Shown piece by piece: positions 23,603 through 58,428 of a DNA stretch of 64,000 nt (position 1 is its first letter; each line of letters begins with the position of its first letter). Under the pieces are notes generated by a model, which saw only the letters and a program-made list of their open reading frames with translations, had not been told where the DNA came from and did no database searches. Made by a program: the position numbers and the translations under genes. Source of the stretch: Leptogorgia sarmentosa (lineage: Eukaryota); assembly GCA_964658305.1 (NCBI GenBank), contig OZ210885.1, forward strand, positions 13,888,001-13,952,000, read 5' to 3'.

Positions 23603-23790
23603 ATCGCTTCTCGGCCTTTTGGCTAAGATCAAGTGTAGTATCTGTTCTTATCAGCTTAATATCTGATATGTTAGGCAATGTCCTAACTCATATATTAAAC
23701 TGATTTTTGGACCTCGGCCATGGGATTGAAGCTTGCTTCGCCCTGGCCACGGGTTGTCTCGGTATTGCACTACCTCCGAGTACGGCCCAC
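23603..23790 (+). ncRNA. RNU2: U2 snRNA
   Basis: Array copy. Confidence 0.98.
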
Positions 23791-24264: not shown

Positions 24265-24428
24265 ATACTTACCTGACGCGAGAGGCACCTTGATCAACTA
24301 GGAGGTCCTCTCAGGATGAGGCCCTTTCATTGCACTTCGACTGGGTTGACTCCTGCGATTACCCCTAATGTGGGTAACTCGAGCGTATAATTTCTGGTAG
24401 TGGGGACCTGCGTTCGCGCTCGTCCCCT
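24265..24428 (+). ncRNA. RNU1: U1 snRNA
   Basis: Array copy. Confidence 0.98.
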
Positions 24429-25128
24429 TTATCCCCATCTTATTATTCTCATTTCCAATACTCAAAACTCACATTACAAATGTCGTCGAGCATGTGTCAG
24501 TATATTGACGAGACAACAATTCCATGTATTCCTCACACTGGCGGCCGCCGCGTGTTTCACGAACACGTGTAACTCGATACTACATCGCGGTCATTCGAAA
24601 CTAATACACAACCATGCAATCAATATTGGATTACTCACACCTTGTTGTAGGCACGTCACGTGGAATGAACGAGTGAGTCAATCCATACACGCGCTGCCAA
24701 CCGATCATGCATTTTATACTAGACTTATGTTAAACAACCATTTCCAATTCAAATGCACTCGTCATTTCTCCAACCGAAGCGCAACCGGACACGCTTCGCT
24801 CAACTCAATGCATGTCGCTCATTTGCCATTCGCGAATCGGTCGCGAAGCCAGCGAATGGGAAAAAGCGCCACGTGCGCCCGCCAAAAAATCGCCAGAAAT
24901 TCGTGGAGAACACACGTGCGTCGCGAGCAGTTTCGCGCGTGCAGCCGAATTAATTAGCAGCGCACAAACGATCGATTGTACGCGTCATCATGCCGCGTGC
25001 CACAACGTTTGCGGCTCGTTTCGCTTGCGATTTCGCGGCCGGGGCTGCTAATGGCGGCGCGAAGGAGGACCGCATTTTTTCACCTTGTCTTTCTCGCTTA
25101 AAAGATGGCGTGGAACGGCGAAGAAGGC

Positions 25129-25316
25129 ATCGCTTCTCGGCCTTTTGGCTAAGATCAAGTGTAGTATCTGTTCTTATCAGCTTAATATCTGATATGTTAG
25201 GCAATGTCCTAACTCATATATTAAACTGATTTTTGGACCTCGGCCATGGGATTGAAGCTTGCTTCGCCCTGGCCACGGGTTGTCTCGGTATTGCACTACC
25301 TCCGAGTACGGCCCAC
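25129..25316 (+). ncRNA. RNU2: U2 snRNA
   Basis: Array copy. Confidence 0.98.
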
Positions 25317-25790
25317 TTCCCCCAATTTCATTATTGGGGGAAGATTTCTCACTCATTATCAGTTCAAAAAAATTCTAACAAATTATTCTTCACTTTACAG
25401 ATAGCTAGATCCTCGCCGCCGCGAACCGGCATTTGGCAAGAGATACGTATATAATGACATCATTATTCAGTGCCGATGACCGACGACGAACGAATTATGG
25501 TAAGCAGCCTAACACATTCATGTTATAATAGTCTTGGGTAGCTACTCGTTGGCCAACAAAGCTTAAGCAGCATCGCTGTTCATGAGATGAGATTAACATA
25601 CTTTGATTTTTTTCTTAATTCCTATTGAACATGCGGGTCGAGAATTGTCGGAACGTGCAAACACGGTGCAGTCCGAGAGATCGATCGATCCATCTATCGA
25701 CCGACAGAGAAACTCATTCCCATGCATTCGTTCCACAAGCATTCCTCGCCGTTGCAGCGTATAAAAGGTAATCGTATGCGCCATGAAGTC

Positions 25791-25954
25791 ATACTTACCT
25801 GACGCGAGAGGCACCTTGATCAACTAGGAGGTCCTCTCAGGATGAGGCCCTTTCATTGCACTTCGACTGGGTTGACTCCTGCGATTACCCCTAATGTGGG
25901 TAACTCGAGCGTATAATTTCTGGTAGTGGGGACCTGCGTTCGCGCTCGTCCCCT
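25791..25954 (+). ncRNA. RNU1: U1 snRNA
   Basis: Array copy. Confidence 0.98.
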
Positions 25955-26654
25955 TTATCCCCATCTTATTATTCTCATTTCCAATACTCAAAACTCACAT
26001 TACAAATGTCGTCGAGCATGTGTCAGTATATTGACGAGACAACAATTCCATGTATTCCTCACACTGGCGGCCGCCGCGTGTTTCACGAACACGTGTAACT
26101 CGATACTACATCGCGGTCATTCGAAACTAATACACAACCATGCAATCAATATTGGATTACTCACACCTTGTTGTAGGCACGTCACGTGGAATGAACGAGT
26201 GAGTCAATCCATACACGCGCTGCCAACCGATCATGCATTTTATACTAGACTTATGTTAAACAACCATTTCCAATTCAAATGCACTCGTCATTTCTCCAAC
26301 CGAAGCGCAACCGGACACGCTTCGCTCAACTCAATGCATGTCGCTCATTTGCCATTCGCGAATCGGTCGCGAAGCCAGCGAATGGGAAAAAGCGCCACGT
26401 GCGCCCGCCAAAAAATCGCCAGAAATTCGTGGAGAACACACGTGCGTCGCGAGCAGTTTCGCGCGTGCAGCCGAATTAATTAGCAGCGCACAAACGATCG
26501 ATTGTACGCGTCATCATGCCGCGTGCCACAACGTTTGCGGCTCGTTTCGCTTGCGATTTCGCGGCCGGGGCTGCTAATGGCGGCGCGAAGGAGGACCGCA
26601 TTTTTTCACCTTGTCTTTCTCGCTTAAAAGATGGCGTGGAACGGCGAAGAAGGC

Positions 26655-26842
26655 ATCGCTTCTCGGCCTTTTGGCTAAGATCAAGTGTAGTATCTGTTCT
26701 TATCAGCTTAATATCTGATATGTTAGGCAATGTCCTAACTCATATATTAAACTGATTTTTGGACCTCGGCCATGGGATTGAAGCTTGCTTCGCCCTGGCC
26801 ACGGGTTGTCTCGGTATTGCACTACCTCCGAGTACGGCCCAC
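26655..26842 (+). ncRNA. RNU2: U2 snRNA
   Basis: Array copy. Confidence 0.98.
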
Positions 26843-27316
26843 TTCCCCCAATTTCATTATTGGGGGAAGATTTCTCACTCATTATCAGTTCAAAAAAATT
26901 CTAACAAATTATTCTTCACTTTACAGATAGCTAGATCCTCGCCGCCGCGAACCGGCATTTGGCAAGAGATACGTATATAATGACATCATTATTCAGTGCC
27001 GATGACCGACGACGAACGAATTATGGTAAGCAGCCTAACACATTCATGTTATAATAGTCTTGGGTAGCTACTCGTTGGCCAACAAAGCTTAAGCAGCATC
27101 GCTGTTCATGAGATGAGATTAACATACTTTGATTTTTTTCTTAATTCCTATTGAACATGCGGGTCGAGAATTGTCGGAACGTGCAAACACGGTGCAGTCC
27201 GAGAGATCGATCGATCCATCTATCGACCGACAGAGAAACTCATTCCCATGCATTCGTTCCACAAGCATTCCTCGCCGTTGCAGCGTATAAAAGGTAATCG
27301 TATGCGCCATGAAGTC

Positions 27317-27480
27317 ATACTTACCTGACGCGAGAGGCACCTTGATCAACTAGGAGGTCCTCTCAGGATGAGGCCCTTTCATTGCACTTCGACTGGGTTG
27401 ACTCCTGCGATTACCCCTAATGTGGGTAACTCGAGCGTATAATTTCTGGTAGTGGGGACCTGCGTTCGCGCTCGTCCCCT
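27317..27480 (+). ncRNA. RNU1: U1 snRNA
   Basis: Array copy. Confidence 0.98.
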
Positions 27481-28180
27481 TTATCCCCATCTTATTATTC
27501 TCATTTCCAATACTCAAAACTCACATTACAAATGTCGTCGAGCATGTGTCAGTATATTGACGAGACAACAATTCCATGTATTCCTCACACTGGCGGCCGC
27601 CGCGTGTTTCACGAACACGTGTAACTCGATACTACATCGCGGTCATTCGAAACTAATACACAACCATGCAATCAATATTGGATTACTCACACCTTGTTGT
27701 AGGCACGTCACGTGGAATGAACGAGTGAGTCAATCCATACACGCGCTGCCAACCGATCATGCATTTTATACTAGACTTATGTTAAACAACCATTTCCAAT
27801 TCAAATGCACTCGTCATTTCTCCAACCGAAGCGCAACCGGACACGCTTCGCTCAACTCAATGCATGTCGCTCATTTGCCATTCGCGAATCGGTCGCGAAG
27901 CCAGCGAATGGGAAAAAGCGCCACGTGCGCCCGCCAAAAAATCGCCAGAAATTCGTGGAGAACACACGTGCGTCGCGAGCAGTTTCGCGCGTGCAGCCGA
28001 ATTAATTAGCAGCGCACAAACGATCGATTGTACGCGTCATCATGCCGCGTGCCACAACGTTTGCGGCTCGTTTCGCTTGCGATTTCGCGGCCGGGGCTGC
28101 TAATGGCGGCGCGAAGGAGGACCGCATTTTTTCACCTTGTCTTTCTCGCTTAAAAGATGGCGTGGAACGGCGAAGAAGGC

Positions 28181-28368
28181 ATCGCTTCTCGGCCTTTTGG
28201 CTAAGATCAAGTGTAGTATCTGTTCTTATCAGCTTAATATCTGATATGTTAGGCAATGTCCTAACTCATATATTAAACTGATTTTTGGACCTCGGCCATG
28301 GGATTGAAGCTTGCTTCGCCCTGGCCACGGGTTGTCTCGGTATTGCACTACCTCCGAGTACGGCCCAC
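28181..28368 (+). ncRNA. RNU2: U2 snRNA
   Basis: Array copy. Confidence 0.98.
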
Positions 28369-28841
28369 TTCCCCAATTTCATTATTGGGGGAAGATTTCT
28401 CACTCATTATCAGTTCAAAAAAATTCTAACAAATTATTCTTCACTTTACAGATAGCTAGATCCTCGCCGCCGCGAACCGGCATTTGGCAAGAGATACGTA
28501 TATAATGACATCATTATTCAGTGCCGATGACCGACGACGAACGAATTATGGTAAGCAGCCTAACACATTCATGTTATAATAGTCTTGGGTAGCTACTCGT
28601 TGGCCAACAAAGCTTAAGCAGCATCGCTGTTCATGAGATGAGATTAACATACTTTGATTTTTTTCTTAATTCCTATTGAACATGCGGGTCGAGAATTGTC
28701 GGAACGTGCAAACACGGTGCAGTCCGAGAGATCGATCGATCCATCTATCGACCGACAGAGAAACTCATTCCCATGCATTCGTTCCACAAGCATTCCTCGC
28801 CGTTGCAGCGTATAAAAGGTAATCGTATGCGCCATGAAGTC

Positions 28842-29005
28842 ATACTTACCTGACGCGAGAGGCACCTTGATCAACTAGGAGGTCCTCTCAGGATGAGGCC
28901 CTTTCATTGCACTTCGACTGGGTTGACTCCTGCGATTACCCCTAATGTGGGTAACTCGAGCGTATAATTTCTGGTAGTGGGGACCTGCGTTCGCGCTCGT
29001 CCCCT
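28842..29005 (+). ncRNA. RNU1: U1 snRNA
   Basis: Array copy. Confidence 0.98.
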
Positions 29006-29705
29006 TTATCCCCATCTTATTATTCTCATTTCCAATACTCAAAACTCACATTACAAATGTCGTCGAGCATGTGTCAGTATATTGACGAGACAACAATTCC
29101 ATGTATTCCTCACACTGGCGGCCGCCGCGTGTTTCACGAACACGTGTAACTCGATACTACATCGCGGTCATTCGAAACTAATACACAACCATGCAATCAA
29201 TATTGGATTACTCACACCTTGTTGTAGGCACGTCACGTGGAATGAACGAGTGAGTCAATCCATACACGCGCTGCCAACCGATCATGCATTTTATACTAGA
29301 CTTATGTTAAACAACCATTTCCAATTCAAATGCACTCGTCATTTCTCCAACCGAAGCGCAACCGGACACGCTTCGCTCAACTCAATGCATGTCGCTCATT
29401 TGCCATTCGCGAATCGGTCGCGAAGCCAGCGAATGGGAAAAAGCGCCACGTGCGCCCGCCAAAAAATCGCCAGAAATTCGTGGAGAACACACGTGCGTCG
29501 CGAGCAGTTTCGCGCGTGCAGCCGAATTAATTAGCAGCGCACAAACGATCGATTGTACGCGTCATCATGCCGCGTGCCACAACGTTTGCGGCTCGTTTCG
29601 CTTGCGATTTCGCGGCCGGGGCTGCTAATGGCGGCGCGAAGGAGGACCGCATTTTTTCACCTTGTCTTTCTCGCTTAAAAGATGGCGTGGAACGGCGAAG
29701 AAGGC

Positions 29706-29893
29706 ATCGCTTCTCGGCCTTTTGGCTAAGATCAAGTGTAGTATCTGTTCTTATCAGCTTAATATCTGATATGTTAGGCAATGTCCTAACTCATATATTA
29801 AACTGATTTTTGGACCTCGGCCATGGGATTGAAGCTTGCTTCGCCCTGGCCACGGGTTGTCTCGGTATTGCACTACCTCCGAGTACGGCCCAC
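29706..29893 (+). ncRNA. RNU2: U2 snRNA
   Basis: Array copy. Confidence 0.98.
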
Positions 29894-30369
29894 TTCCCCC
29901 AATTTCATTATTGGGGGAAGATTTCTCACTCATTATCAGTTCAAAAAAATTCTAACAAATTATTCTTCACTTTACAGATAGCTAGATCCTCGCCGCCGCG
30001 AAACCGGCATTTGGCAAGAGATACGTATATAATGACATCATTATTCAGTGCCGATGACCGACGACGAACGAATTATGGTAAGCAGCCTAACACATTCATG
30101 TTATAATAGTCTTGGGTAGCTACTCGTTGGCCAACAAAGCTTAAGCAGCATCGCTGTTCATGAGATGAGATTAACATACTTTGATTTTTTTCTTAATTCC
30201 TATTGAACATGCGGGTCGAGAATTGTCGGAACGTGCAAACACGGTGCAGTCCGAGAGATCGATCGATCCATCTATCGACCGACAGAGAAACTCATTCCCA
30301 TGCATTCGTTTCCACAAGCATTCCTCGCCGTTGCAGCGTATAAAAGGTAATCGTATGCGCCATGAAGTC

Positions 30370-30533
30370 ATACTTACCTGACGCGAGAGGCACCTTGATC
30401 AACTAGGAGGTCCTCTCAGGATGAGGCCCTTTCATTGCACTTCGACTGGGTTGACTCCTGCGATTACCCCTAATGTGGGTAACTCGAGCGTATAATTTCT
30501 GGTAGTGGGGACCTGCGTTCGCGCTCGTCCCCT
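30370..30533 (+). ncRNA. RNU1: U1 snRNA
   Basis: Array copy. Confidence 0.98.
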
Positions 30534-30912
30534 TTATCCCCATCTTATTATTCTCATTTCCAATACTCAAAACTCACATTACAAATGTCGTCGAGCATGT
30601 GTCAGTATATTGACGAGACAACAATTCCATGTATTCCTCACACTGGCGGCCGCCGCGTGTTTTCACGAACACGTGTAACTCGATACTACATCGCGGTCAT
30701 TCGAAACTAATACACAACCATGCAATCAATATTGGATTACTCACACCTTGTTGTAGGCACGTCACGTGGAATGAACGAGTGAGTCAATCCATACACGCGC
30801 TGCCAACCGATCATGCATTTTATACTAGACTTATGTTAAACAACCATTTCCAATTCAAATGCACTCGTCATTTCTCCAACCGAAGCGCAACCGGACACGC
30901 TTCGCTCAACTC

Positions 30913-31012
30913 NNNNNNNNNNNNNNNNNNNNNNNNNNNNNNNNNNNNNNNNNNNNNNNNNNNNNNNNNNNNNNNNNNNNNNNNNNNNNNNNNNNNNNNN
31001 NNNNNNNNNNNN
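30913..31012. other. Assembly gap (100 N)
   Basis: Run of N; true size unknown. Confidence 1.
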
Positions 31013-32304
31013 TCGACTCTGGATATCACTCGCGATCAGACGGATATAATTCGAATAAAACTAACTCGAACATGAAATATACAAATCGATCGCGTTATGT
31101 TGATCAGCCGAATAACGTAAATATCCCTTCATCTCCCATGCCTCGCAAGAATCTATTTAACACTTTCAGTAAACCCGTCCACAGACAAGATATATATCGA
31201 CCAGCACCCGTTCATGAAAAAGAGGTCACTAACAATCAAACAGCTAACAAGTCGGACGAACCAACTCAGGAAGTAACGACTGAATCTCCAGCCACTCCAA
31301 ACCCTCCTCAATCCCTATCTCCCCCCAACACACCAAATCCCTCAACCCCTCCTCCCACATCACCCAATACCCTTACATCCCTCTCAAATTCCGATGATCC
31401 CCCTAAACCCTTAACAACCAACCCTTCCTCCCAATTATCCCATACCGAACTCCCACCCACCAAATCCTTACCTGCAAACTCAAAACCTCCTTCCTCTTCT
31501 TCAGCCTCCTCGTCTAAATCTAAAAAGAAAAAGAAAAACAAGAAAGTTAGTATTGACACCTCCCCTCCTAAATCAGTGGTGGACAATCCTGATGATCTGC
31601 TTGCTTCCTCCGATCCCGTCACAATCATTCCCTCTCCTCCTGTATTTGTCGTTTCTAAAGATTCTATAGATGGTGATATCAAAACAGAAATAGATCCAAC
31701 CTCACCAGAATATGATCCTCAAAATGACTCCTTTACTTCCCAACCTGATCCTCTTCCCATCGATTCCTTTGGACGACTTGCTCATACCATCAGAGCCGAA
31801 AGAATGGACATCCAAGGCACATGTCGCCTATGTCACGCTGAAGTCAAATCCCATCAAGCTGACTCGCATCTTCTGGATTGCAGAGGAATTAACCAAACTG
31901 ACACGGATGACTTTGCCTATGAATATGTGAACATTACAAATAACACTTATCAGAACGTTATATCGCTTATTTTAGATTATAGTGAATGCATAATGCATGA
32001 TGACGAACTTACGGCTATATTCAGTAATTTGTCTACTTCGCGCCAATTCTTCTCCGATCTTGAATCTTTGCTTGACCGCAAAGCTATTAAAATTTATAAA
32101 CAATTAGGTATACACGGTCAACAAAAACGATTTAACATTCTTCGATATGATTAATATCTCCATCTCTGTCCATAAATATTTTAGTGCGTAAAAGTCACTA
32201 ACTTATATTAATTGTCTTGATACACTATGTACATTAGTCTACTTACTAGCAACTATCTATCACCTGTAATCTTTTCACCTTGTTTTTGAATAAATTTGTT
32301 ACAA
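31013..32304 (+). mobile_element. U2-inserted protein-coding element A (5' part lost in gap), no RT in the visible part, Utopia-type 3' end
   Basis: Ends TTTTGAATAAATTTGTTACAA joined to U2 nt 39 (TCTGTTCTTATCAG), the same junction as the elements ending at 37416 and 56878. Confidence 0.88.
31015..32154 (+). CDS. Unknown protein, partial (>379 aa): DSGYHS motif, Pro/Ser/Thr-rich linker, Lys run, CX2CX11HX3C finger, helical C-terminal domain
   Basis: Open frame from the gap to the stop; C-terminal ~140 aa align by eye with the 35792-37270 protein. Confidence 0.85.
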   Translation, partial: DSGYHSRSDGYNSNKTNSNMKYTNRSRYVDQPNNVNIPSSPMPRKNLFNTFSKPVHRQDIYRPAPVHEKEVTNNQTANKSDEPTQEVTTESPATPNPPQSLSPPNTPNPSTPPPTSPNTLTSLSNSDDPPKPLTTNPSSQLSHTELPPTKSLPANSKPPSSSSASSSKSKKKKKNKKVSIDTSPPKSVVDNPDDLLASSDPVTIIPSPPVFVVSKDSIDGDIKTEIDPTSPEYDPQNDSFTSQPDPLPIDSFGRLAHTIRAERMDIQGTCRLCHAEVKSHQADSHLLDCRGINQTDTDDFAYEYVNITNNTYQNVISLILDYSECIMHDDELTAIFSNLSTSRQFFSDLESLLDRKAIKIYKQLGIHGQQKRFNILRYD

Positions 32305-32454
32305 TCTGTTCTTATCAGCTTAATATCTGATATGTTAGGCAATGTCCTAACTCATATATTAAACTGATTTTTGGACCTCGGCCATGGGATTGAAGCTTGC
32401 TTCGCCCTGGCCACGGGTTGTCTCGGTATTGCACTACCTCCGAGTACGGCCCAC
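32305..32454 (+). pseudogene. RNU2: U2 snRNA 3' part (nt 39-188), interrupted
   Basis: Follows the 3' end of element A. Confidence 0.95.
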
Positions 32455-32923
32455 TTCCCCCAATTTCATTATTGGGGGAAGATTTCTCACTCATTATCAG
32501 TTCAAAAAAATTCTAACAAATTATTCTTCACTTTACAGATAGCTAGATCCTCGCCGCCGCGAACCGGCATTTGGCAAGAGATACGTATATAATGACATCA
32601 TTATTCAGTGCCGATGACCGACGACGAACGAATTATGGTAAGCAGTCTAACACATTCATGTTATAATAGTCTTGGGTAGCTACTCGTTGGCCAACAAAGC
32701 TTAAGCAGCATCGCTGTTCATGAGATTAACATACTTTGATTTTTTTGTTAATTCCTACTGAACATGCGGGCCGAGAATTGTCGGAACGTGCAAACACGGT
32801 GCAGTCCGAGAGATCGATCGATCCATCTATCCACAGACAGACAAACTCATCCCCATGCATTCGTTCCACAAGCATTCCTCGCCGTTGCAGCGTATAAAAG
32901 GTAATCGTATGCGCCATGAAGTC

Positions 32924-35356: not shown

Positions 35357-37416
35357 CGCGACATTTTTGTCGGCAATTTTCGGCTCCGTAGTTTTCTTCA
35401 AATTTCTCCGGTTTAACTTGGACTTTTCGCTCTACAAATATCATAGAAGTGTTCCTAACGTTCTCGTGGTCATTTTGGTGGTTATTTGGCAAAGTTTGGA
35501 CAAGTATTTGCGAAGATATTAACATTTATCTACATCGAGTTACCGATCGCGTATTTCGTACGAAATTACATATCGAAAGTGTTGCGATTTGATCTTATTT
35601 CTGGTTTATATTCGTCAAGTAAGACATTGTTTTGTTCGCGATTCCTCCCTCTACATTTTGGTACACTTTTCATCCTGATCGGACATAAACTTTCGAAGAA
35701 ATCGCCGTCTTTCTCTTTGGACATTGTTTACAGTGCGTTAATTATTATAATTTATTCCACATCCATATCCGCTTTATATTCGTCACGTATTATGGCTCAT
35801 ACAAATGGAATTTTACCTATTCCGAGATCACCCAGTATAAAGAATGGTGTTCCTGCTGATTACATCAAGCCGTCCTATTATCCTGTCCCTTATCAAGCCG
35901 TCATAGCCATTGAGAACTGCAACATTGATCAATTATTATCTTGGGACATCAATGTCGCTGTGAAATCCATCAAGATCAAAATGGAATGGTCTCTGGCAAA
36001 TACATCCAATAACACTCTGAACAACTTATTTCCCAAATCTGTCTGCAACTCCATCTCGTCATATAACCTTGGTTCTCCCTCCTGGTCCTCCTCATTCGCC
36101 AACGACAAGTTATCTCTAAAAGTTGAATGGAAGATCAATGAGAACAAACCTGTTCCTGTTTCCCCTATTCCACCTACAAAATACTTACCTGCTCAATCAT
36201 TTGTTACCCCTTTTAAATCCAACCTTATGAATGATTCAGGCTATGGTAGTCCATATCTCAACACATCCACTCCTGCCACTAGATTAACCTTCAACTCTCC
36301 TTCCCCTGTTAAACATCGTCACGATGTTTACAAATCCCCTACTAACAAACCTTCCAAAACTATTGGTGAAAATGTGTCATTTACTTCAACCACAACAAAT
36401 TCATCATCCTCTCCTTCCATCGTCGCCTGCTCCAGTTCCAGTAATACCTCCATCTCCACTTCTCAACCAAAACCTGTTGTTGAAGGAGTTACCTTATCTA
36501 AATCACCTTCACCCTCAACATCAGCTATTACATCCAATCTCACTTCCACATTACCTGATCCCCCAGTCAACGATTCCTTAAACGATGACGAAGCCAGTAT
36601 TCAATCCGTTGCTGATTCATCAACCCAAACCATAACCTCATCCCAATTGAACCCCCCGCCCCCTCCCTCATCCCCACTTACCTCTTCTGAAAACTCCAAG
36701 TCCGTTCCTGATCCTCATCCTGATGTCGATCTATCCAAAATTAAATCGTCTGAGAAACCAAAATACACCGTATCCGACAAGTCCACTGAGAAAAATATCA
36801 TCCTCCGTCGCGATCCTCAAGTCGATCCCATGAATAGCAAGTATGTTAAAAAACCTAAGAAGATGCAGAAATCTGGAAAAAATAAATTCCTTGATCAGAA
36901 GCTTGATGCTGGTCGTATGGATATCGTCGGAAATTGTCGTTTCTGTGGTGAATCACTGTCCTCCTGTTATGCAGATTTTCACATCCTTACCTGCAAGAAA
37001 TTCGATGAGATGATTACAACAGAATTTTATGAACATTTAGCTAGATTAATATCAAATGGTGATCATTATAATATTGAAGGCATTGTATATAACTACTGCT
37101 TATATGAACTACATACCGCAGAGTACGATGTAAACGAATTTTTTGATCTTGAGTCTTTTAAATTATTTATCATAGAAATCGAACAGTTTTTGGACAAAAG
37201 AGCCGCATGTATGCTGAAATCTATTGGTCTCAGTAACCCAAGACGTTTTAATATTCTCAAATATCCTTGATTCTTCTCAACTTTGAACTTTTGATGTTTG
37301 ACTTTTTAGTCACTCATGAACACACATTTCTTAATTGTCTATGCTATAGATTACTCTTTAAACACCTAACTAGTGTAAAAATCCTGTAATTCTTGTTTTG
37401 AATAAATTTGTTACAA
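35357..37416 (+). mobile_element. U2-inserted RT-less protein-coding element B, 2060 bp, both junctions present
   Basis: GTGTAGTA|CGCGACATT ... TTCTTGTTTTGAATAAATTTGTTACAA|TCTGTTC; single ORF, no RT or endonuclease motifs, no TIR or LTR. Confidence 0.92.
35792..37270 (+). CDS. Unknown 492-aa protein (frame open from 35486): duplicated SW-x8-[IL]x[IL]K[MV]EW motif, DSGYGS, Ser/Pro-rich linker, CX2CX11HX3C finger, C-terminal RFNIL
   Basis: Uninterrupted ORF, first ATG at 35792; homologous by eye to 31015-32154. Confidence 0.88.
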   Translation: MAHTNGILPIPRSPSIKNGVPADYIKPSYYPVPYQAVIAIENCNIDQLLSWDINVAVKSIKIKMEWSLANTSNNTLNNLFPKSVCNSISSYNLGSPSWSSSFANDKLSLKVEWKINENKPVPVSPIPPTKYLPAQSFVTPFKSNLMNDSGYGSPYLNTSTPATRLTFNSPSPVKHRHDVYKSPTNKPSKTIGENVSFTSTTTNSSSSPSIVACSSSSNTSISTSQPKPVVEGVTLSKSPSPSTSAITSNLTSTLPDPPVNDSLNDDEASIQSVADSSTQTITSSQLNPPPPPSSPLTSSENSKSVPDPHPDVDLSKIKSSEKPKYTVSDKSTEKNIILRRDPQVDPMNSKYVKKPKKMQKSGKNKFLDQKLDAGRMDIVGNCRFCGESLSSCYADFHILTCKKFDEMITTEFYEHLARLISNGDHYNIEGIVYNYCLYELHTAEYDVNEFFDLESFKLFIIEIEQFLDKRAACMLKSIGLSNPRRFNILKYP

Positions 37417-44968: not shown

Positions 44969-45407
44969 CGCACGCACGCAGGTTCACGCGCGAGCGGGCT
45001 CTGCAAAATTCAATAAATTTTTGTATTAAATTATATCTAATCAATCATACCAACACATCAAACTACAACCTCGGTCCCAGGGTCTTGATCCTCGCTCGCT
45101 CCCGCTGAGGAGAGACCCTGGTTGCGGCTGGTCACGTGGCACCCAGATTTTGGGTGCTTAATTGGTTTGTACACTTAGGGAGGGGTGGTAGAGGAGAGTG
45201 TGTTTATTGTGTTTGAAATTTCCATAAATCAGGTTATAAATCATGAAATCATGAGTACATTGCGCTCATAAAATTTTTCGAAGAAATCGGATATAACACT
45301 ATTGCTATTCAATTACATAATTAAGTCATGACCTCGAACAAAGGAAGCATCAAATTACATTTTATATATGGGATTGGTCAAAAGGTTACTTATTCAGTTC
45401 TGGCTCG

Positions 45408-48400
45408 ATGGCCACTAGCGGAGGCACGCCGAAAAAATTCTACCAAAGTACATCTGTATCGACGGTAATCTCGCGTTGCAGACTGTGTTATTCTGTTGGG
45501 GATCCAAAGCATTGCAAAAATTTATTTGGGGCTGCGAATAGAGCAATTTTACGCAACGCTGAAAGTGTTTACGGGAGTGAGTTGCCTTCAAGTATCGAAC
45601 ATCCGCACTTGATTTGTCGGCCATGCGAAAGAAGGGTGAATACTGTCATTCAGTTTAAGCAAACAATTGGCGAAACGCAGAGAAAATTACGACAAGAAGT
45701 GCGTGCAAAACGTTGTGTCGACTTATCGCCATCCGTCGCTAAACCTGCCCCTAAAGTTCGAGCTACAGCTACTGAGAAATCACGTCGGCGCACTCTCGAT
45801 TTTGGTGGTGAATCGGAAAGTGCGAGGGAAATTGTAAGTCCTATATTATTGTCTTTCCCTTAGTATAAATATGTTTATTCAAACTTGTTAACCCAAGATT
45901 TTGAATTTTTCCTTGTGGAATATTGAGCGCTGTTAATGAGTGCATAGCCGCATATGAATAATTCATTCATATTCATGAATGAACCTTTGTGTAACAATGG
46001 TTTCATTCATGACTCAGTGTGTGACCGACTGTGTGTATTAAATTTCAAAGCCTTTTAATACTGACCCTAATATTCAATGTGGCCGTGTAGTCTGAAATTA
46101 TATCACACAGTTATAATACATTTCACTCACAAGACGTCTTTCATTTGAAGCGAGCTCCAATACATAATTATATATTCATGCCTAAAATTGATTTAAAGTA
46201 AAATGTTTATTTTTTTCATGTCTCATGACATATTAGTCACAATTGTAGAAAAAAACAATTGGTAGCTTGACCTTCAAATGTGCAACCATTAATGTCAAAT
46301 CTTAACAAATTAGTCAAAATTATCACATTACATATTCTATCAGTCAGGATCAAAGTCTGAAGGGAGACTCACCTCCCTCTGCCCTGTTCCCCATTTCCAT
46401 GCATCCCTGTCCATACCAATTAATAAACTGATACATGCACAAGGTGCAATGGGGCAACATGAAAATTACTTGTACTATACAACACCAAATTGAAAGAGCT
46501 ATGCTGATATATTTGCAGACATATCGGCACATAGTTACTATATGTGGAACTGTAAATCCAATTCTTGAGTCCAAGGATGCTTCAGGAGGAATAGTTTCTA
46601 TACTATAACATAGTTATATATTTTTATTTTAAAGAATGGTGAGGCATTGGTGAGGGCAAATAAAGAATTAATTGAGGTTGCCAGACGAAGTGAATCATCT
46701 GTTCTACGGAAACGATCATATGATGGTTTGTCAGCAGAGGGATGGATTTCAGAGGTTTTGGAAGAGCTAGCAACCAGATGTCCAATGGTAAACAAAATCC
46801 TGAGATCTCTGGTGGAAAGCAGCATTTACCCAGAGAAGAAAAATCCTGTTATCTGCTTAATTTATGGCATTGTAATGTTCTTGCGGTGTCATGAATTAAG
46901 TAGGATTCAAAGGATAAATTCTGTTCTGTTGATAGAAGGACATGCATCTGTGGATGTAAGTACCATAATTATTTGAATTTATAAGTGCTTCTCTCAAATA
47001 AACATTGAAGGGACAAATAAATACTGTCATTGTGTTCACATAATTTTTTTGTACTACTTTTAGTTGATTTCTCGTCTGAATAAGTTTGGTATATGCCTCG
47101 AGCCAACAAAGAAATATCCAATACTAGATGACATTGGCAAACATTTCATCGATCGTGCAGCTGAGTTGGTGAAGTCCGGACATAAATTTGTTTATGTTCT
47201 GGACAACATCGACTGGGAGGAGAAGGCACACGACATGAGGCAAAATATTCAAAACAGGAGTGTTCATGCTGTGGCAACAAGTATTGTATTCAACCGTGTT
47301 TCTGACCAAGGGTTGCCCGATTCTGGTCCTCAGCAAAGTCTGAAGGATTGCAATGTCCACCAGCTGGTAGATATCAGTCCTCTGGAGTTGGAGGCAATCC
47401 GAAGCCGGTATAGAATACTTGTTGCCAAGCTTTTGTTTGAACACTTTCCTGCGTTTGAAATGTTCATGCCTCATGTTGCTACGAGCACCAAGTCAATGAA
47501 TGACAAAGAAATGTCCACCAAGTCTGAAGTGTTGACCATGCCCATCATGATGAAGGACGAAAAAAAATATTCAGACTGTGTCGATGTTTTGGACCAACTC
47601 GAGACATGGACACATGAAATATACACAGCCGCTGGGTTATGTTCCAAACAGCCAGAATCAGCAAATGACACCCCACCCACAATCATGACGACATCCAGAC
47701 CCGACCAGCCTGCATCTCATATTCCACCTGTTGAGTCACAAAACGATCCCCTGCGAGGAGTCAAGATACCATGCTTTGGTGACCAGCTCACAAGGGTGCG
47801 ATTTGCTGGAGCAAAAGATCTGAGGGCAGGATGTCACTCAGCCAAGCAAAGATTGGATCACTTATACCCATTTTGCATTGTGGACTGGCATACGAAGAGA
47901 AGTTTCTTAAAGGTATGAAAAACATAAATAACTGCAATACAGTGTGTACACCAGTTTGGCAAATCTCCATGTCATAAATGTTCTTTTATTTTCTATTCAA
48001 TTGCTGTAGCATAAATATATTGAAAATGTTACAGTATTTCCTGTCTTTCTCATATATTTTGAGTAACAACACTGTAAAACTGGTGTAGATCCCAGCAATT
48101 GGTGATGCATATATAAAGCATATAACCCAACTATATTGGAAAGAGAAAAGTAATTCTCTTTCAGCTACAGTACCTTGGAAACAGGATGTTTGTAACATTA
48201 TGATTTATTTAATATGGTAATATGTTTCTTTTCTTCAGACTGTATACAAGAAACTATACAAAAATTCTGGAAGAGAGAAAGGTACCCTGCGATTCTTCAG
48301 AGAAAAACTCAATCGGAGGAATGTCACTGCTGATGTGAAGCACTATGAGGATTGTGAGCAGCTGTTTTTCAGTGTTGGGAAGTGTTTTGTCATTGAAGCC

Positions 48401-49264
48401 CTTTTGGAATTTTTCCAAATGGACAGCACAAAACACAAACCAACAGCGAACAATCCTCATAGTGTTGAAGTTCTAACAGAAGAGTACCGGAAACAATACA
48501 TTACCAGCATGCTGGATAAATTCATTGACGAATTTGTTTTCATTGGTGGAAATGGAGAGGTCGCAGACGGTGTTTGGAGCTATTCTGTCAATGTCATCAA
48601 ATGTTTTTTAATATTGGTTGACTTTAAGGATGCAGTCTCCACAGGCAATGGTGAGCACCTGCTCATCCTAAGGAAACAGTTGCTGCACCATTTCTTTGCC
48701 TCACCTGGCTTCAATGAATTTTCAATTGAGATGCTGATCAACATTCTGCAAAGCAAAGTGCTGCTATCAGAAGCAGAGGCACATCGCTGCAAATGGGCAG
48801 CTACAGTTAATTGGAAAGGCGGTGCCGGAAACAACATCGAGATTGACTTGTTCCAAGAGAACAGAAATTGTGAGATGAAGAAGCTGATCAAAGCAATGGG
48901 TGCAAACAAAACAGAGCAAGCTATTTCTAGAGCAAGCAAGGCATCTGGAGGTGTGACAAATATTGTTGATGCATTTGAGCATCAAGTAAACATCCACCAG
49001 AAATCTTCCAGACACTCACACAAGTCATCGGTCAGTGATGAAGCAATCATTAACAAAGATTTGAGAGACTTAAGGCCATTCAAGAAGGATGATGAACGAT
49101 CATTTGAATCCTTTAAAGGGATTTCCCATGACCCCACCCACACATTGAACAAGGAAAAGTTCAGAACCTGGATGTCACGGCACAAGAAAAACCTCTTGAT
49201 GCACTTTCCAGTGATTGGTGACACTGAAAATGAGCATGAAGAAGAGGTGTTTGATATGGATTAA
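45408..49264 (+). CDS. Academ-type transposase, spliced: 45408-45833, 46635-46955, 47064-47912, 48239-49264 (~873 aa; an extra small exon in intron 1 is possible)
   Basis: GT-AG phase-0 introns; N-terminal CRLC...CRPC zinc finger; VLDNIDW, FGDQLT, DWH and IDLFQENRN motifs. Confidence 0.82.
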
Positions 49265-50410
49265 GTGGAACAATAAGAGATGTATGCACTGTAATGTGTA
49301 AGTTAAAAAATATATTGCTACTTAAGGTTCCTGCCTTGCAGAAGGCAATTGCACTTATTGCTCTTGTTCCTACCACCAAGCCTTGCATTGATGCAATATG
49401 TTTTCAAAATGAAGGTTGTTGGTAAAAACAATAGCCTTATGAAACCTGAATAAGTGCTATTATTAAACAAGTAGGCTTTATATCAATTTATTACTAAACT
49501 AATCATGATGATTAATAGCATATGTTTTGTGCATTCTTCAAACATACTGCAGTCACAAAACTAGCTGCAAATTTTAAGGTGCATTTTAAGATGAATGTTG
49601 CATATATTGAATTTAGTCAAATGTATTTAAACTGTTTGGCAGTAACTATATGATAATATAACAGAAAGGATAATGATACCAATTGGTCAAACAATATTTT
49701 TTTAAAATTAAACTAGTTTCTATTGCACATAGTACATGCACTGTAAAAATTTTCATAATCACATTGATAGGTATGGACACAAAATGCACAATGGTATTAA
49801 AATGTAAAAATTGTATTGAAGTTATATCCATAAAATTACAAGTACTGTAAATGTTAAAATACAGTACACAAACTGAATGTTTAGTCAGTTGTTTATTATT
49901 CAAACACACATCCATCCCCTACACTTGAGTTGGCATGGCTGTCAAAATTATTGTAGAGCCCTTCTAAGAGAAACACTTGATAGCAGGTATTTATTATAGG
50001 CTACAGCATATTTGTTTTGGACACTCACTTTACATATATATCCGTACTCATGCATGTACTTGCATTATTATTATATGAAAGAATTTGTAGATTCTGATTG
50101 GCTAGCCCTCATGTTTCAAATCTATGGTCGCATCATATGAGCGTTTTCATTTATGTTATGACATCAACTCGTGATGAAGCAGGAATGTAAAACAACACAA
50201 ATGGCTTCCTCAAATATGTGCTACAACCTAAATTCTTCCATTGTTTCAAATAATAATAAAACTTAATATCAATTTTGACTTTCACAAGATATGAAGAATA
50301 AGCAAGCCTCAGTTTGTCATTCTCGACCTCATTATTATAATAATTGGATTACTGCATGTGGAAATGCCTTCAAAGTGTTTTTGCTACAACAGTATACAAC
50401 CTTACTAAAC

Positions 50411-51994
50411 TTACAAGTTCTCCATATCAAGTGATAAACACTCGAAGCACGTACAATCATTTTCACAAACATTACAACAAACATGCAATGGCTTTATCAA
50501 AATATCCTGTTCATAGTCCATTGACTTTAACATCAATTTTCTTAGGCATTGATTGTTACTTGAGCAGAAATGACGCATATCATCCTGCATGCCCACTCTA
50601 TTTTTTGCAATATCCCGGTTGTTATAGTACAAGCAAGCCCATGAAGGATTGCCATCTCTCCCAGCACGTCCAGTTTCTTGCATGTAAGCTTTTACTGTAG
50701 TTGGAGGTCCAATATGTACAATGTGGCGAATATTTGGTATGTCCACACCCATTCCTAAAGCAACTGTTGCAAAAATTACCCGAACAATGCTTCTTCCTGA
50801 ACAGAGTTGTTTTAGGATGTCATCCTTCATTTGGGATGTTTGCGGAGCATGAAATTGGGCAAACAGGCGATTTTCAGGAATTTTGTCAGAGCCAAGGGGA
50901 AAGTACTGCTCAGTACCAAGGACATACTCGAACAACTTGTACGCAAATCCACAAAATTTTAATGGGATATACACAATTGTTAATGGATAGTCGATTTTCT
51001 TCTGCAGAAGGCCCATAGCAATTGGTTCCAAGATTGATGGAATTGCATCAACATCTTGCCCATCACGAAAGACCTTTTTATAAAAAATATTCTTTCGATC
51101 AGGATTGGCAATGATGGATTTGCAATTTTTTAACCCCAACGAATTCTGGATACACCTGATATCTGCCTTATTAGCCGTGGCAGTCATTGCGAGAACCGGC
51201 ACGTCTGGAAAATATGCACAAAGCACTCCTAACTTCCCATAGTCTGTTCTAAAGTCATTTCCCCTGCAATAAGAAACATGTATTATGAACCTTCAGCAAC
51301 ATGCTAGCAAAATATATATGAATTGGTGACTACTGGTATATTTTCATACCTGCTTTTTCATATATAGATATATACCTAATTTACCTATGTTATAAGAATA
51401 TCAAATATTTTTTACTTACCAATCCAGTATACAATGAGCTTCGTCTATGACAATGGCAACAACATTTTCCTGGTAGTTTTTGTTCAATAACAACTCCCGT
51501 CCATATTTAGTGGAAATTAACGATTCTGGATGCGCAAAAACTAGATGGTAATGACCAGCACGTAGTTTAGCTTCTTCGCAAAGACGGAAATCAACATCGT
51601 GTTCAATATTTTCTTCCGAATCAACGTTGCTTTGGTGTTGTCTCGTGATAACATCTATAACCGACGCTCGAATACCACTCGCATATAAACGGGCAACTTG
51701 GTCACTTATTAAAGAGTTTAATGGGGACACAACCATAACAATCGACGAAACTGTCGTGGCAGCAATATCTTTTGACTTCCAACTACAAATTCTGCCTCTC
51801 ACAAACAACAACATTGGCAAAAGATGGAAAACCAATGATTTGCCATAGCCCGTTGGCAAAACACACATTACATCGTTTTGCAAATACATGCTCTCGAGGC
51901 AAACAACTTGCTTTGGTTTAAAAACAATCTCATCGTAGAAGCTATTTAAAACAGCAAACTCCAAGCACGATAAAAAGACAATGTAATCCAGCAT
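50411..51994 (-). CDS. RecQ-like SF2 helicase, exons 51994-51420 and 51263-50411
   Basis: LPTGYGKS, VSPLNSL, DEAHCILDW|GNDFR across the splice, MTAT, ATVALGMGVD, QETGRAGRDG, C-terminal Cys cluster. Confidence 0.93.
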
Positions 51995-52723
51995 GGCGAA
52001 CGCGATAAGAAAAGTACGCCAAGTGGAAACATGTAACATGACACTCTCCCATCACCCCCTAAGGCAGCTAATTATTCGCCAGTCACGTGACCAGCCGCAA
52101 CCAGGGTCTCTCCTCCCCTTGGGGTTATGAGGAGAGAGCCTGGGTACGAGGTTGATCAAACTACTCCTAAAGACGTGTAGAATCATCTACTGGTGTTTAT
52201 CTTGTATCAAGACATCGATCTCATCTTGTTTTTGGATTTATTGTTTTCCGCATTGTGTTTACATTTACATCTCGTACGCTACAAACGGGTTCAATTTAAA
52301 CTTTTGGTCATATCTTCTCTCTGGATAACTCAATCATCGTGGAAATTCCTATGTGATCTACAATTCTCTGTATTAAACGTCTGTAAAAGTTTCGCGTCGT
52401 CAAATCGTCCCTACGTAAAGTTATTTGGATCCCTTTCATTGTGACCGTTGGAAATTATTTGAATTTTTGAATATTAATTAAGTCCCATACTCGGCCCGTA
52501 TTCCGCTTATATCTCTGGTTCAACGCAAGATATCCACTCATAACTTGGCTATTATATTCCTATTCTGGTCTACAACACCTCTACCAAGTTGGACGCTGGA
52601 AACTTTATTATTTCCTGAGATATTTATTATCTACGTATCGTACTTTAATCCCGGTTTATTAATTATTGTATCCTGTCGTCGCCCGTCAAATGTGGGGATT
52701 TCCCTAATTCGTCTTATTGCGTA

Positions 52724-55700
52724 ATGCCTTCGTGGGAATGCTCAGATTGCGACTTCATTGGCAAATCAAGTCAAGGTCTCGGTGTCCATCGCTCCAAGAA
52801 GCACAATTGTAAAAACAGTTCATTCCCTAACGTGAAGTCCGTATCTGTTGTTCGTGAATACCCCGAGAACAGAAGTTTCTATTGTTGTTTATGTAACTCT
52901 ATCGTACTAAACTATAACCATCTAAGCCGTCACTTTAAAAACCTTCACCCGGCAATTAACCTATCATCATCTGCAAAATGCTCAATATGTGGTAAGCTCT
53001 TCTCTAGCGGTCAAGGCGCTGGTGTCCATATCAATAAATCTCAATGTGGGAAAACGAAGTCAGTAAAGATCAATGATGAACCCATCATGTCATACGCGAA
53101 ATATCACGATGAGGATTCCATTGTTACCACACCACAATCCACTACCAACAGCAATCCCATCATTACCTCAACCCAATCCCAACCCACACAAGCCCCCTTT
53201 TATCTCGAACCAGTGGTCGTCTTAGTTGATTGTACTGCTGTGAACAGACCTCCTTCCACAAACCTCACCACTCCTCCCCCTCCCTCCCCTTCGATCCGTG
53301 AAACTCCCGCACCCTCCATATGTGACCTCCCATCCGAGGACTATGATGACCCAGATATTTCCTTCGATATTCCCTCCCCTCTACATGCTTCCCAATTCCT
53401 TTCCCAACCATTTCCTTCCCACCCTAGCAGACCTTCCGTTTCCCCATCTCAACAAAATCCTCGCCCTACCTCCCAATCCTCTCCCCAATCCCCTTCCCCT
53501 ACACTCCCTCACACTCCCTCTCCTACCCCCCTCATCCACCCCTTTCCTGACCCATCCCTTCCATCAAGTTCTCATCCATCCTCTGACCCCTCCCACAATA
53601 TCCCTATGTCCCCTCCCGCTGATGCCTTACCATCTACACCTTCGACAGATCCCTCCTCAAGTGATACGCCTAACTCATTACCCCCGAACCATCCCAATAA
53701 CCCCTCAGATGTCCAATCCGAGTTCTCAAACAAATGGTTAGCTACATTCTCCACAAATTCCAACTGGGACGACTTCTCCAACCAATGCTATAACTTCGCA
53801 AGTGATGTCATCCTGGAGAGTGATAAGAACTTTGATCTTAGGAAGAAAGCTGCACCCCGACGTAACAACCGCCCATCTGCCAGACCTATCAATGCCAACC
53901 GTCGTCCGCTCAAATACAACCCTATCGAAGCCCGTAGAATCCAACGCTTATACCGCCTCTCTAAGAAGCGTGCCGCCAGACAAGTAATAAGCGATAATAA
54001 ACCATCCTACACTGGCTCGGTCGATGAAGCGAACCATTTCTTCCAACAGGTCTTTGGTGAAAAAACTGTCGACGCTGATGCAGTCCAACAAGGTCTTAAT
54101 GACAACGTTCCATCTGGCCCTAAAGATCACTCCCTCTATGATCCCATCACTCCTGATAAAATTGCCAAAAAACTCCGCTCCCTTTCTAACTCCGCTCCCG
54201 GTGCTGACCGAGTTGAATACAGACACCTGAAGTCCGTTGACTCCAAAGGCGAAGTACTCTGCGCCATCTACAACCGGTGCTTAATAGAAAATGATGTTCC
54301 TTTGAAATGGAAATCATCTCGGACAGTCCTGATCCATAAGAAAGGTGATGCCGCCGACATTTCCAACTTTCGTCCCATAGCCCTGATGAGTTGCATTTAT
54401 AAAATTTTCATGAGTATCCTGGCCGACCGTCTGGTCACCTATTCCATCGACAACAACTACCTGTCCAACTCCCAAAAAAGCGCTCGTCCCACCGAAGGAT
54501 GCTACGAACACACCTTCATCCTGCAATCACTTGTTCTTGATGCCAAAAGACACCAAAAGAATCTCTTTGTTGCTTGGCTCGATCTACGAAATGCCTTTGG
54601 TAGCGTTCCCCATGAAGTCATCTCCCTTACCCTATCCCACCTTGGCGTGCCTGATCCCATCGTAAACCTGGTTAAAAACATCTACACCAACGCCACAACC
54701 GAAATCAACACTCCTGCAGGAATAACTCCCGGCATTCCCATCCATGCTGGTGTCAAACAGGGCTGTCCGCTATCACCCATTCTGTTTAACCTATGTATTG
54801 AGATCATAATCCGGGCAATTGCCTCAAAGGGACATGACACCGGTCCTGTTAAACACTACAATGGTGAAATTTCTGTCTTGGCATATGCTGATGATTTGGT
54901 CCTCCTCGCTAAAACCAAGGACAAACTCCAACTCCTCCTTGATGCAGCATCCACCTCTGCCAACCTCATCGGTCTTGATTTCCGTCCTGACAAATGTGCC
55001 TCCCTAAGTATGACTTACAGCAATAGATGTGATGGCAACATACAAATTAACAACCTAAATGTTCAAGACAAAGCCATCCCTGCTCTAAAAGAACACGAAC
55101 ATTATCGGTACTTAGGAGTTCCCATCGGTATGATCCGCGACGTCGACAATCTAGACTCTCTGGTTGATGACCTCTGCAACGACCTCGACAGAATCAGTAA
55201 CTCTCTTCTCGCCCCCTGGCAAAAACTGGACGCCATTCGAACTTTTGTGCAGCCTTGCCTGACATTCGCTCTCCGTGCCGGCGAACCACAAAAAGCGTCC
55301 CTAACCAAGTACAGAAGGAAACTCATCGAAGTTGTTCGATCCATCTGCCACCTACCTCTCCGTGCCACAACCCATATCATCTTTGCCTCAACAAAAGCAG
55401 GTGGCCTAGGCTTTCAAGACCCATATGATGAAGTAGACGTCCAAACGGTGGTCCAAGCAATCAAAATGCTTTCCTCCAAAGACCCCTTTGTCTCTGCCGT
55501 GGCCATTGGTGAACTCAGACGAGCGGTCACCTTCGCAATACAATCAGATGCGTCCCCTGCTAACATCCGTGACTTTCTTTCCGGATCCACCCAAGGCAAA
55601 TTCCACCACTCACGCATGCGATACCGTACCCACTCCCTATGGACCCGAGCAAGACAAGCATCCCATCGCTTAGGCTTAACTTTCAACGTCCCTGACAACG

Positions 55701-56500
55701 ACGCCCCGTCTATCTCAACGACCTCAAAAGGCCCCTGCCCTGCTCGATCAGCATCCGCCTTCCTACATCGCGTAGTACAAGACCGAGCCTCAGAAAAGCT
55801 GATGGCCCTCCCGGATCAAGGAAAGGTTGCTCGGGCCCTTGTCAAAGATGCTTTTTGCAACGGTTCCTCTTGGCTTTTCTCGGGTCTCAACATGCGTTTC
55901 AAAGATTGGAGATTCATCCACCGTGCAAGATTGAACGTTGTTCCAACAAACCAGAATAAATCCCGTTGGTCCGACTGCTCTAATCTCTGCCGTGTTTGCT
56001 CCTCCCACCCAGAAACCTTGCCCCATGTCATTTGCCATTGTACATCAAATATGGTCCAAATTCGAGAACGCCACAACTCCATAGTGAATCGACTAGCGAA
56101 AGCCGTCCGATATGGTAACGTTCAACTTGACTGTCAAATTGATGGCATAGATGATGAGTGTCGCCCTGATATTGTAATACATGAGGATAACGAAGTCACA
56201 ATCATCGATGTAACCTGCCCCTTTGACAACGACGAAAACGCCCTCTCCACCGCGGACTTCAATAAAGTAATGAAATATAACCACCTGAAACATCATTTCA
56301 ACCAACTTGGACTTAACTGTCACGTCTTCGGTTTCGTTATTGGCGCTCTTGGAACATGGCACCCTAACAATGAAGCTGTCCTAAACCAACTCCGTATGGC
56401 TAAATCATATAAGTCGCTGTTTAGAAAGTTATGCTGCTCCGATGTCATCCGTGGCTCAGCAGAAATATACTACAACCACATGGCCCAGCTAGTGGACTAA
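52724..56500 (+). CDS. Utopia-like polyprotein: N-terminal zinc fingers, RT, CCHC, restriction-like endonuclease (1258 aa)
   Basis: CSDC..HRSKKH, CCLC..HFKNLH; FRPIAL, LDLRNAFGSV, GVKQGCPLSP, AYADD; CRVC..ETLPHVICHC, RHN, RPDIV..IIDV..K..KY. Confidence 0.97.
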   Translation: MPSWECSDCDFIGKSSQGLGVHRSKKHNCKNSSFPNVKSVSVVREYPENRSFYCCLCNSIVLNYNHLSRHFKNLHPAINLSSSAKCSICGKLFSSGQGAGVHINKSQCGKTKSVKINDEPIMSYAKYHDEDSIVTTPQSTTNSNPIITSTQSQPTQAPFYLEPVVVLVDCTAVNRPPSTNLTTPPPPSPSIRETPAPSICDLPSEDYDDPDISFDIPSPLHASQFLSQPFPSHPSRPSVSPSQQNPRPTSQSSPQSPSPTLPHTPSPTPLIHPFPDPSLPSSSHPSSDPSHNIPMSPPADALPSTPSTDPSSSDTPNSLPPNHPNNPSDVQSEFSNKWLATFSTNSNWDDFSNQCYNFASDVILESDKNFDLRKKAAPRRNNRPSARPINANRRPLKYNPIEARRIQRLYRLSKKRAARQVISDNKPSYTGSVDEANHFFQQVFGEKTVDADAVQQGLNDNVPSGPKDHSLYDPITPDKIAKKLRSLSNSAPGADRVEYRHLKSVDSKGEVLCAIYNRCLIENDVPLKWKSSRTVLIHKKGDAADISNFRPIALMSCIYKIFMSILADRLVTYSIDNNYLSNSQKSARPTEGCYEHTFILQSLVLDAKRHQKNLFVAWLDLRNAFGSVPHEVISLTLSHLGVPDPIVNLVKNIYTNATTEINTPAGITPGIPIHAGVKQGCPLSPILFNLCIEIIIRAIASKGHDTGPVKHYNGEISVLAYADDLVLLAKTKDKLQLLLDAASTSANLIGLDFRPDKCASLSMTYSNRCDGNIQINNLNVQDKAIPALKEHEHYRYLGVPIGMIRDVDNLDSLVDDLCNDLDRISNSLLAPWQKLDAIRTFVQPCLTFALRAGEPQKASLTKYRRKLIEVVRSICHLPLRATTHIIFASTKAGGLGFQDPYDEVDVQTVVQAIKMLSSKDPFVSAVAIGELRRAVTFAIQSDASPANIRDFLSGSTQGKFHHSRMRYRTHSLWTRARQASHRLGLTFNVPDNDAPSISTTSKGPCPARSASAFLHRVVQDRASEKLMALPDQGKVARALVKDAFCNGSSWLFSGLNMRFKDWRFIHRARLNVVPTNQNKSRWSDCSNLCRVCSSHPETLPHVICHCTSNMVQIRERHNSIVNRLAKAVRYGNVQLDCQIDGIDDECRPDIVIHEDNEVTIIDVTCPFDNDENALSTADFNKVMKYNHLKHHFNQLGLNCHVFGFVIGALGTWHPNNEAVLNQLRMAKSYKSLFRKLCCSDVIRGSAEIYYNHMAQLVD

Positions 56501-56878
56501 ACACTGAACAAACATTTACTCGTAATTCCATAGCCTAAATACTCCTCACTTGTAAAAAGTATAATCCCATTCTTTGTGTGCCTTCTGTATTCATATAACA
56601 TGAAACATTAGTATAACAAAATTAGTTCTTAGTCAGCCCACAATCAGTAGTAAAACAGCACATCCGTAAACATAGTACAGCAAACTAGTTCCCGAAAACA
56701 TTCGTCTCAGAATTCTTAAGTTAATTAGTACTCAGTTATCACGTACATTACGTCACATATAACATATATATATATATAGTCATTTAAGGTATTCTAATAA
56801 CTATGTCATTAGTATCTCATGAATAACTACGTCATCAATGTAAATAACTATTTCTTGTTTTGAATAAATTTGTTACAA

Positions 56879-58395: not shown

Positions 58396-58428
58396 ATTCT
58401 GGCTGTTGGTGAAGAAGATCACGCTAAA

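Follow-up and report, generated by a model that had tools for sequence, protein, structure and literature searches.

Element C, which interrupts a U2 snRNA gene in a 64,000-nt stretch of Leptogorgia sarmentosa DNA (the whole of that stretch is called the window below), is probably a non-autonomous retrotransposon of ~2 kb with a single conserved gene of its own, copied between U2 nt 38 and 39 by the RT of a Utopia element acting in trans. The direct observations behind this reading are the insertion site, the 21-nt end shared with other inserts, a complete RT-less sister (element B), selection on the C-terminal domain (C-domain) of the encoded protein, a two-domain protein family, and the swapping of its halves. 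Positions of the main features are collected in Table 1.

Table 1. Features of element C and its neighbours in the U1/U2 array; positions are those of the window.
Feature	Position	Strand	Remarks
Assembly gap, 100 N	30913..31012		hides the 5' junction and N-domain of C
Element C, visible 3' two-thirds	31013..32304	+	
ORF of C	31015..32154	+	open from gap edge to stop; 379 aa visible
DSGYHS of C	31015..31032	+	fits the beta-TrCP degron consensus DSG-Phi-x-S
HRQDIYR linker motif of C	31180..31200	+	
C-terminal domain of C, 175 aa	31627..32151	+	predicted fold, pLDDT 89; purifying selection; no structural match
Putative zinc finger of C, CxxC-x11-H-x3-C	31822..31881	+	
3' UTR of C, 150 nt	32155..32304	+	
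21-nt terminus of C	32284..32304	+	includes AATAAA; common, without mismatch, to C, B and the Utopia-type element
U2 snRNA gene, nt 39 onward	32305..32459	+	3' target flank of C
Element B, 2060 nt	35357..37416	+	complete sister of C, between U2 nt 38 and 39
ORF of B, 492 aa from Met	35792..37270	+	N-domain, linker, C-domain
Tx1-like element, complete	38930 to ~44951		ORF1 CCHC, APE-RT; U2 resumes at nt 22, a short duplication
Utopia-type autonomous element, likely helper	44969..56878	+	at U2 nt 38/39
Helper frame, intact, 1283 codons	52649..56500	+	first Met at 52724
Second Tx1-like element	58396-64000		ORF1 CCHC, APE-RT

Inserts at U2 nt 38/39 and their shared 3' end

A tandem U1/U2 snRNA array with a unit of 1526 bp begins ~11.4 kb into the window, and its left edge (11400-11432) is a 5'-truncated U2 copy fused to unique DNA. 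To the right of the assembly gap the U2 copies are broken by five inserts: C, B, a Tx1-like element, a Utopia-type RLE element and another Tx1-like element. On the left of the gap, array units differ from one another at 0-4 positions per ~1100 nt but from the right-hand units at 19-46, and the right-hand units differ among themselves at 8-45 positions over the same length. As the left units are nearly identical to each other and so distant from the right ones, the gap is probably a scaffold join, its size undefined rather than 100 bases. The twelve highly similar left-hand units (12921-30912) represent either recent homogenisation or a collapsed consensus.

The preliminary description had placed C at the U2 nt 39 junction with a 3' terminus identical to that of B, and both points hold. 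U2 resumes at 32305 directly after C, as it does after B at 37417 and after the RLE element at 56879, and the computed common suffix is 21 nt for C and B, 21 nt for C and the Utopia-type element and 27 nt for B and the Utopia-type element. With up to three mismatches allowed, the 21-mer occurs three times in the window, every time exactly and at the end of one of these three elements (0.02 occurrences in shuffles), and it is absent from the complete Tx1-like element. Six metagenome stretches also contained the 21-mer; none of the six (0/6) then ran into U2 or carried the cargo family (the proteins encoded by B and C), hence these were taken as chance occurrences. In C the sequence TGTAA at 32265, present in B and the Utopia-type element as well, can pair with the terminal TTACA to form a short terminal stem, a weak candidate for a recognition element; folding of the whole 3' UTRs of the three elements gave z-scores of 0.6, 0.0 and 1.3, none of them significant.

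Element B is flanked by U2 nt 1-38 on the left and nt 39 onward on the right, with no target duplication, a single ORF and no RT. According to the accessible text of PMC4640811, the 3' flank of Utopia starts at U2 nt 39, arthropod Utopia families lack a target duplication, and several families coexist in arrays. The nt-39 junction and the missing target duplication of B fit these published traits, in favour of mobilisation by Utopia. The frame of B is also open for 111 codons upstream of its conserved Met (35459-35791), with a similar hydrophobic extension in two homologs (P0009 and P0014), and this stretch may include an alternative start or else belong to a conserved 5' UTR. Compared with the 5' UTR of the helper, that of B gave no significant match (best E 0.44).

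The helper protein comprises N-terminal C2H2 fingers, RT, CCHC and an RLE-type RPDI motif, and its Utopia-type label is based on site and architecture. Its 5' UTR is split by a 7.1-kb DNA transposon (45066-52154), putatively AcademH-like, which has imperfect terminal inverted repeats and a 9-bp target duplication and encodes zf-AD, DUF6589 and, convergently, a DEAD/Helicase_C gene. The helper and the complete Tx1-like element occupy one U2 copy (44952-44969), the former lying 17 nt downstream of the latter's 3' junction. The two Tx1-like elements join U2 at nt 26 and 27, unlike the nt-39 flank published for Keno (PMC4640811).

Lack of an RT had originally been claimed for the visible part of C alone. 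Support for the lack now reaches further, though indirectly, through Logan contigs from four of the 23 runs listed, none of which was RNA (X1, X4, X5 and X10; one run may be the source of the window), that were compared with 31013-32304. Contigs of X1, X4 and X5, from three studies, extend 688, 720 and 720 nt to the left past the gap edge, and those of X10 do not reach this end of C. By eye, the 30 letters shown beyond the edge for X5 are in frame and free of stops. The visible frame of C starts at the DSGY motif, which lies 132-160 aa from the start of the N-domain in 45 family proteins, and the missing N-domain needs 400-480 nt of the ~700 nt upstream. The rest would be a leader of 220-300 nt, giving a whole element of ~2.0 kb, like B. 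For comparison, the helper's RT domain alone takes 795 nt and the portion from RT to the end of its ORF 2166 nt. An RT ORF upstream of C is therefore not indicated, as 688-720 nt leave room for an N-domain but not for an RT too; this contig-end argument is strong but indirect, since unitigs end at any branch. A ZF-RT-ZF-RLE ORF is absent from the complete B and from the visible part of C, and no cargo-family homolog among 63 profile matches (see below) contains YADD/FADD or exceeds 690 aa. Longer fused forms of the cargo protein numbered 0 of 238 candidates, which is weak evidence in the same direction.

A two-domain protein family with exchangeable halves

The proteins of C and B had been described as alike in blocks only. 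All five peptide blocks are indeed present, but they belong to one continuous alignment of 174 aa with 30% identity. The pairwise match (E 9e-22) stays significant after SEG masking, at 84 bits and E 5.5e-22 versus at most 24.3 bits in 500 shuffles. Searches with B as query returned 25 homologs, to which an alignment search added two, and a C-domain profile run against 1.84 billion representatives gave 63 matches (clusters at 50% identity) of 54-690 aa. Among the 32 matches of at least 400 aa, 29 have the same N-domain; two of the other three look like members without a start, and the third (P0117) is a repeat-finger protein. Homologs with a species name came only from the octocoral Paramuricea clavata (three proteins, CAB3990389.1, CAB4040446.1 and CAB4044704.1), and family profiles run within the window matched B and C only. 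Altogether 143 proteins were collected, of which 70 have both domains, leaving 35 non-redundant members at <70% identity.

The family layout is an N-domain, a P/S linker and a C-domain with a C2HC finger. CxxC-x11-H-x3-C is present in all 35 non-redundant members, DSGxxS in 33/35 linkers (shuffles: mean 0.2, max 2) and an HDVY-like motif, [HQN]D[VIT][YF], in 32/35 members (shuffles: mean 0.6, max 3). A cyclin-docking motif was rejected, as the pattern was found in 0/35. DSG-Phi-x-S is the consensus of the SCF(beta-TrCP) degron, as given in the part of PMC4324316 consulted. AlphaFold models show a two-fold alpha-beta-beta N-domain with moderate confidence, a linker that is disordered (pLDDT <50 along most of its length) and a confidently predicted C-domain (pTM 0.85). 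The repeat-finger protein P0117 (641 aa) has eight tandem G-x-C-R-x-C...H-x3-C fingers and matches the C-domain profile with E 1e-12, making it a possible lead to the origin of the C-domain finger. This finger may be UBZ- or BED-like, leads supported only by P0117, which otherwise looks unrelated.

Comparisons with known families and folds were largely negative. Neither B nor C matched a Pfam family at E 0.1, and 22 members gave only single-member matches (E at least 0.018). A PDB sequence search with the cargo proteins found no match, and ESM Atlas offered no usable match for the N-domain and at best 0.78 for the C-domain. Foldseek found nothing at E 0.001 for the full model in PDB and BFVD (best, ACT-like domains, E 0.014) or for the C-domain model in PDB, and VIA fold comparison gave best Z scores of 4.4 (N region), 3.1 (C-domain) and 4.8 (C-domain vs 48,161 chains), with no match. 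The C-domain of C is thus a confidently modelled domain without a structural match in the searches run. The cargo family matched neither the local Tx1 ORF1s nor, at detectable level, the helper protein, and descent of the cargo finger from the helper's N-terminal fingers was rejected (hhalign probability 0.7%). Judged by length and motif, neither B nor any of the 63 profile matches has an APE + RT ORF2 or a CCHC ORF1.

One member of 619 aa, P0063, has an N-domain and resembles both the visible start of C and its C-domain. P0063 and P0096 share one longest-contig figure (347,980), as do P0013 and P0018 (303,065), which suggests that clusters of diverged members sit on one contig. Pattern searches for related loci gave nine matches in viral contigs and 98 in metagenome contigs, none of which was confirmed.

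The earlier inference of an old family under purifying selection, rather than a one-off retrocopy, is borne out by saturated synonymous sites between B and C, a low pN/pS in the C-domain and the 63 clusters. Over 153 codons, B and C have a pS of 0.78 (saturated) and a dN of 0.81. Among near-identical variants of C from the four runs, the C-domain carries 6 nonsynonymous and 10 synonymous differences (pN/pS 0.165, binomial p 4.8e-4) and the linker, which served as internal control, 15 and 4 (pN/pS 1.2). Hence the C-domain ratio, 0.17 vs 1.2 in the linker, is not near 1; the estimates use 35 distinct coding differences among those listed, ignore transition bias, and draw 14 of the 16 C-domain changes from one X1 contig.

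N and C halves have different histories. P0002 and P0015 share 95% of their residues in N and 32% in C, and the opposite imbalance is seen in B and P0002 (50% in N, 74% in C) and in P0011 and P0022 (56% in N, 76% in C); median identity in a redundant set of 34 is 54% for N and 27% for C. When trees of the two domains were compared over the 35 members, each domain alignment rejected the other's tree (AU p 3e-4 and 6e-61, from short domains and 2000 replicates, which is below the program's advice). The same is visible at the nucleotide level. Contigs of X4 and X5 (1084 and 1090 letters) match C at 31445-31538, diverge, and rejoin it for the last 22 nt, hence this species label includes yet another 3' half, the third, that ends in the shared terminus, and contigs of X1, X4 and X5 join C at 31391 with a different 5' side. 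Exchange between cargo members lies in the linker.

Probable mobilisation of C and possible roles of its protein

In R2 SIDEs the 3' end is enough for site-specific mobilisation in trans, and the R2 RT jumps between templates in vivo (PMC3414825, from the part consulted). For C, transcription could start at the upstream U2 promoter and give a U2(1-38)-element chimera that is polyadenylated at the AATAAA inside the 21-nt terminus. The Utopia protein would then bind this terminus, nick U2 and reverse-transcribe the cargo RNA (TPRT). The U2 leader would guide the 5' side to a clean junction, and the N and C halves may be shuffled when the template is switched within the P/S linker.

What the cargo protein does can be proposed only tentatively. 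The favoured role is an accessory one that helps its own element to spread: it might be an adaptor or an anti-silencing factor analogous to the anti-silencing proteins of transposons, in which case the finger domain would set specificity and DSG-Phi-x-S would tie the protein to SCF(beta-TrCP), with degron-timed turnover. A broader and more speculative view is that C and B belong to an old class of gene-carrying satellite retroelements, resident in the snRNA arrays of an animal lineage and using a 21-nt terminus to hijack an RLE retrotransposon that is site-specific. The unnamed two-domain protein, with its beta-TrCP degron and an exchangeable zinc-finger domain whose fold has no match, would there be a reprogrammable effector (anti-silencing or ubiquitin-ligase recruitment) directed against host defence or rival elements. 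If this satellite class is real, it would be natural proof that Utopia can deliver an unrelated coding cargo of ~2 kb to a precise position in U2.

Selection on the protein need not serve the element. C and B may be moved by Utopia and yet keep their gene because it benefits the host or the array, perhaps through restraint of Utopia or Tx1 invasion of U2 genes, and a trans-acting protein of a helper-dependent element would otherwise be hard to maintain by selection. Three kinds of retroelement crowd the array, and a swappable, fast-diverging C-domain (27% median identity vs 54% for N) fits an arms race in either direction. Such a benefit is nevertheless unlikely, as a U2 gene is lost with every copy, many diverged lineages are found together and recombine in the manner of selfish families, and no host-type locus was seen. 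The ORF might instead come from a host gene family, B and C being retrocopies captured independently onto the Utopia 3' end by template jumps of the kind made by the R2 RT in vivo (PMC3414825, from the part consulted), and many homologs do lie on long contigs. We regard independent capture as quite improbable, given the purifying selection among C's own variants, the domain mosaicism, and a terminus common to three or more distinct 3' halves, those of B, C and the X4/X5 contigs. Moreover, 17 short contigs picked from match lists exceed the ORF by just 229-1218 nt, which fits small inter-repeat units, although transcripts would look similar.

Two further alternatives concern the source of the RT. 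C could represent the 3' portion of a larger autonomous element with its RT inside the gap, whose size is undefined, and the contig ends could be internal branches; this is very improbable, however, with the sister B complete without an RT, three runs ending ~700 nt upstream where an N-domain plus UTR would fit, and no long fusion found. That the helper was a Keno/Tx1 (APE) element instead of Utopia is hardly credible. Keno has the same U2 3' flank (PMC4640811) and is reported in cnidarians (PMC4494074), both according to the accessible parts of these papers, and two Tx1-like elements are present in the array, but these join U2 at nt 26/27, the complete one resumes at nt 22 and lacks the 21-mer, and the cargo is unlike Tx1 ORF1s. 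Mobilisation by Utopia in trans thus stays our preferred reading, and C would work like a trans-mobilised non-autonomous LINE.

Comparison with known retroelements

C and B resemble Utopia in their insertion at U2 nt 38/39, in the lack of a target duplication in B, in the presence of several families per array and in a 3' terminus common with the local Utopia-type element. They differ in having no RT, RLE or C2H2 array and a single ORF with no match to the helper ORF, hence C appears not to be a Utopia member. The term "non-autonomous" (or "nonautonomous") does not occur in the accessible text of PMC4640811, nor does its Table 1 list a cnidarian; the Utopia-type element described here, with an intact 1283-codon frame, comes from a probable cnidarian host. 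An R2 survey (PMC13188248) mentions Utopia without using "non-autonomous" in its accessible part, and a coding partner of Utopia without RT did not turn up in our literature search, though Repbase or paper supplements may hold one. Keno (Tx1 clade) shares the published U2 3' flank, but is autonomous with an APE endonuclease, and the local Tx1-like elements lie at nt 22-27. Like SINEU, C and B would be trans-mobilised elements bearing U2 sequence at the 5' side, but SINEU is non-coding, dispersed and mobilised by Tx1-Mar, and its 5' sequence is U2-derived, whereas for C and B U2 is the target on both sides (PMC4494074, from the part consulted).

R2 SIDEs, as described in the consulted part of PMC3414825, are likewise non-autonomous and site-specific with a stringent 3' end, and C and B too have a 3' end in common with an autonomous element inserted at their target. 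However, R2 SIDEs are short internal deletions that join a ribozyme to a 3' end and are non-coding, whereas C and B carry a selected gene family of 490-690 aa, share just 21-27 nt with the helper and, in the case of B, have no Rfam ribozyme match. They make testable how little RNA (perhaps 21-40 nt) the Utopia enzyme needs to insert foreign cargo at a site conserved in eukaryotes, a point relevant to gene insertion with retrotransposons, and also how a helper-dependent element maintains a gene of its own.

HeT-A, HAL1 and Ag-Sponge are similar to C and B in having one protein, no RT and, as proposed for C and B, mobilisation in trans; they derive from the Jockey, L1 and CR1 clades and encode an ORF1p-type protein (PMC5786205, from the part consulted). 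Utopia, with its single ORF, lacks an ORF1, and the cargo protein matches neither its helper nor Tx1 ORF1, so membership of C in the ORF1-type group is not supported by matches. C and B thus appear to fit neither of two known kinds, the ORF1-type coding LINEs (PMC5786205, in the part consulted) and the R2 SIDEs composed of joined element ends.
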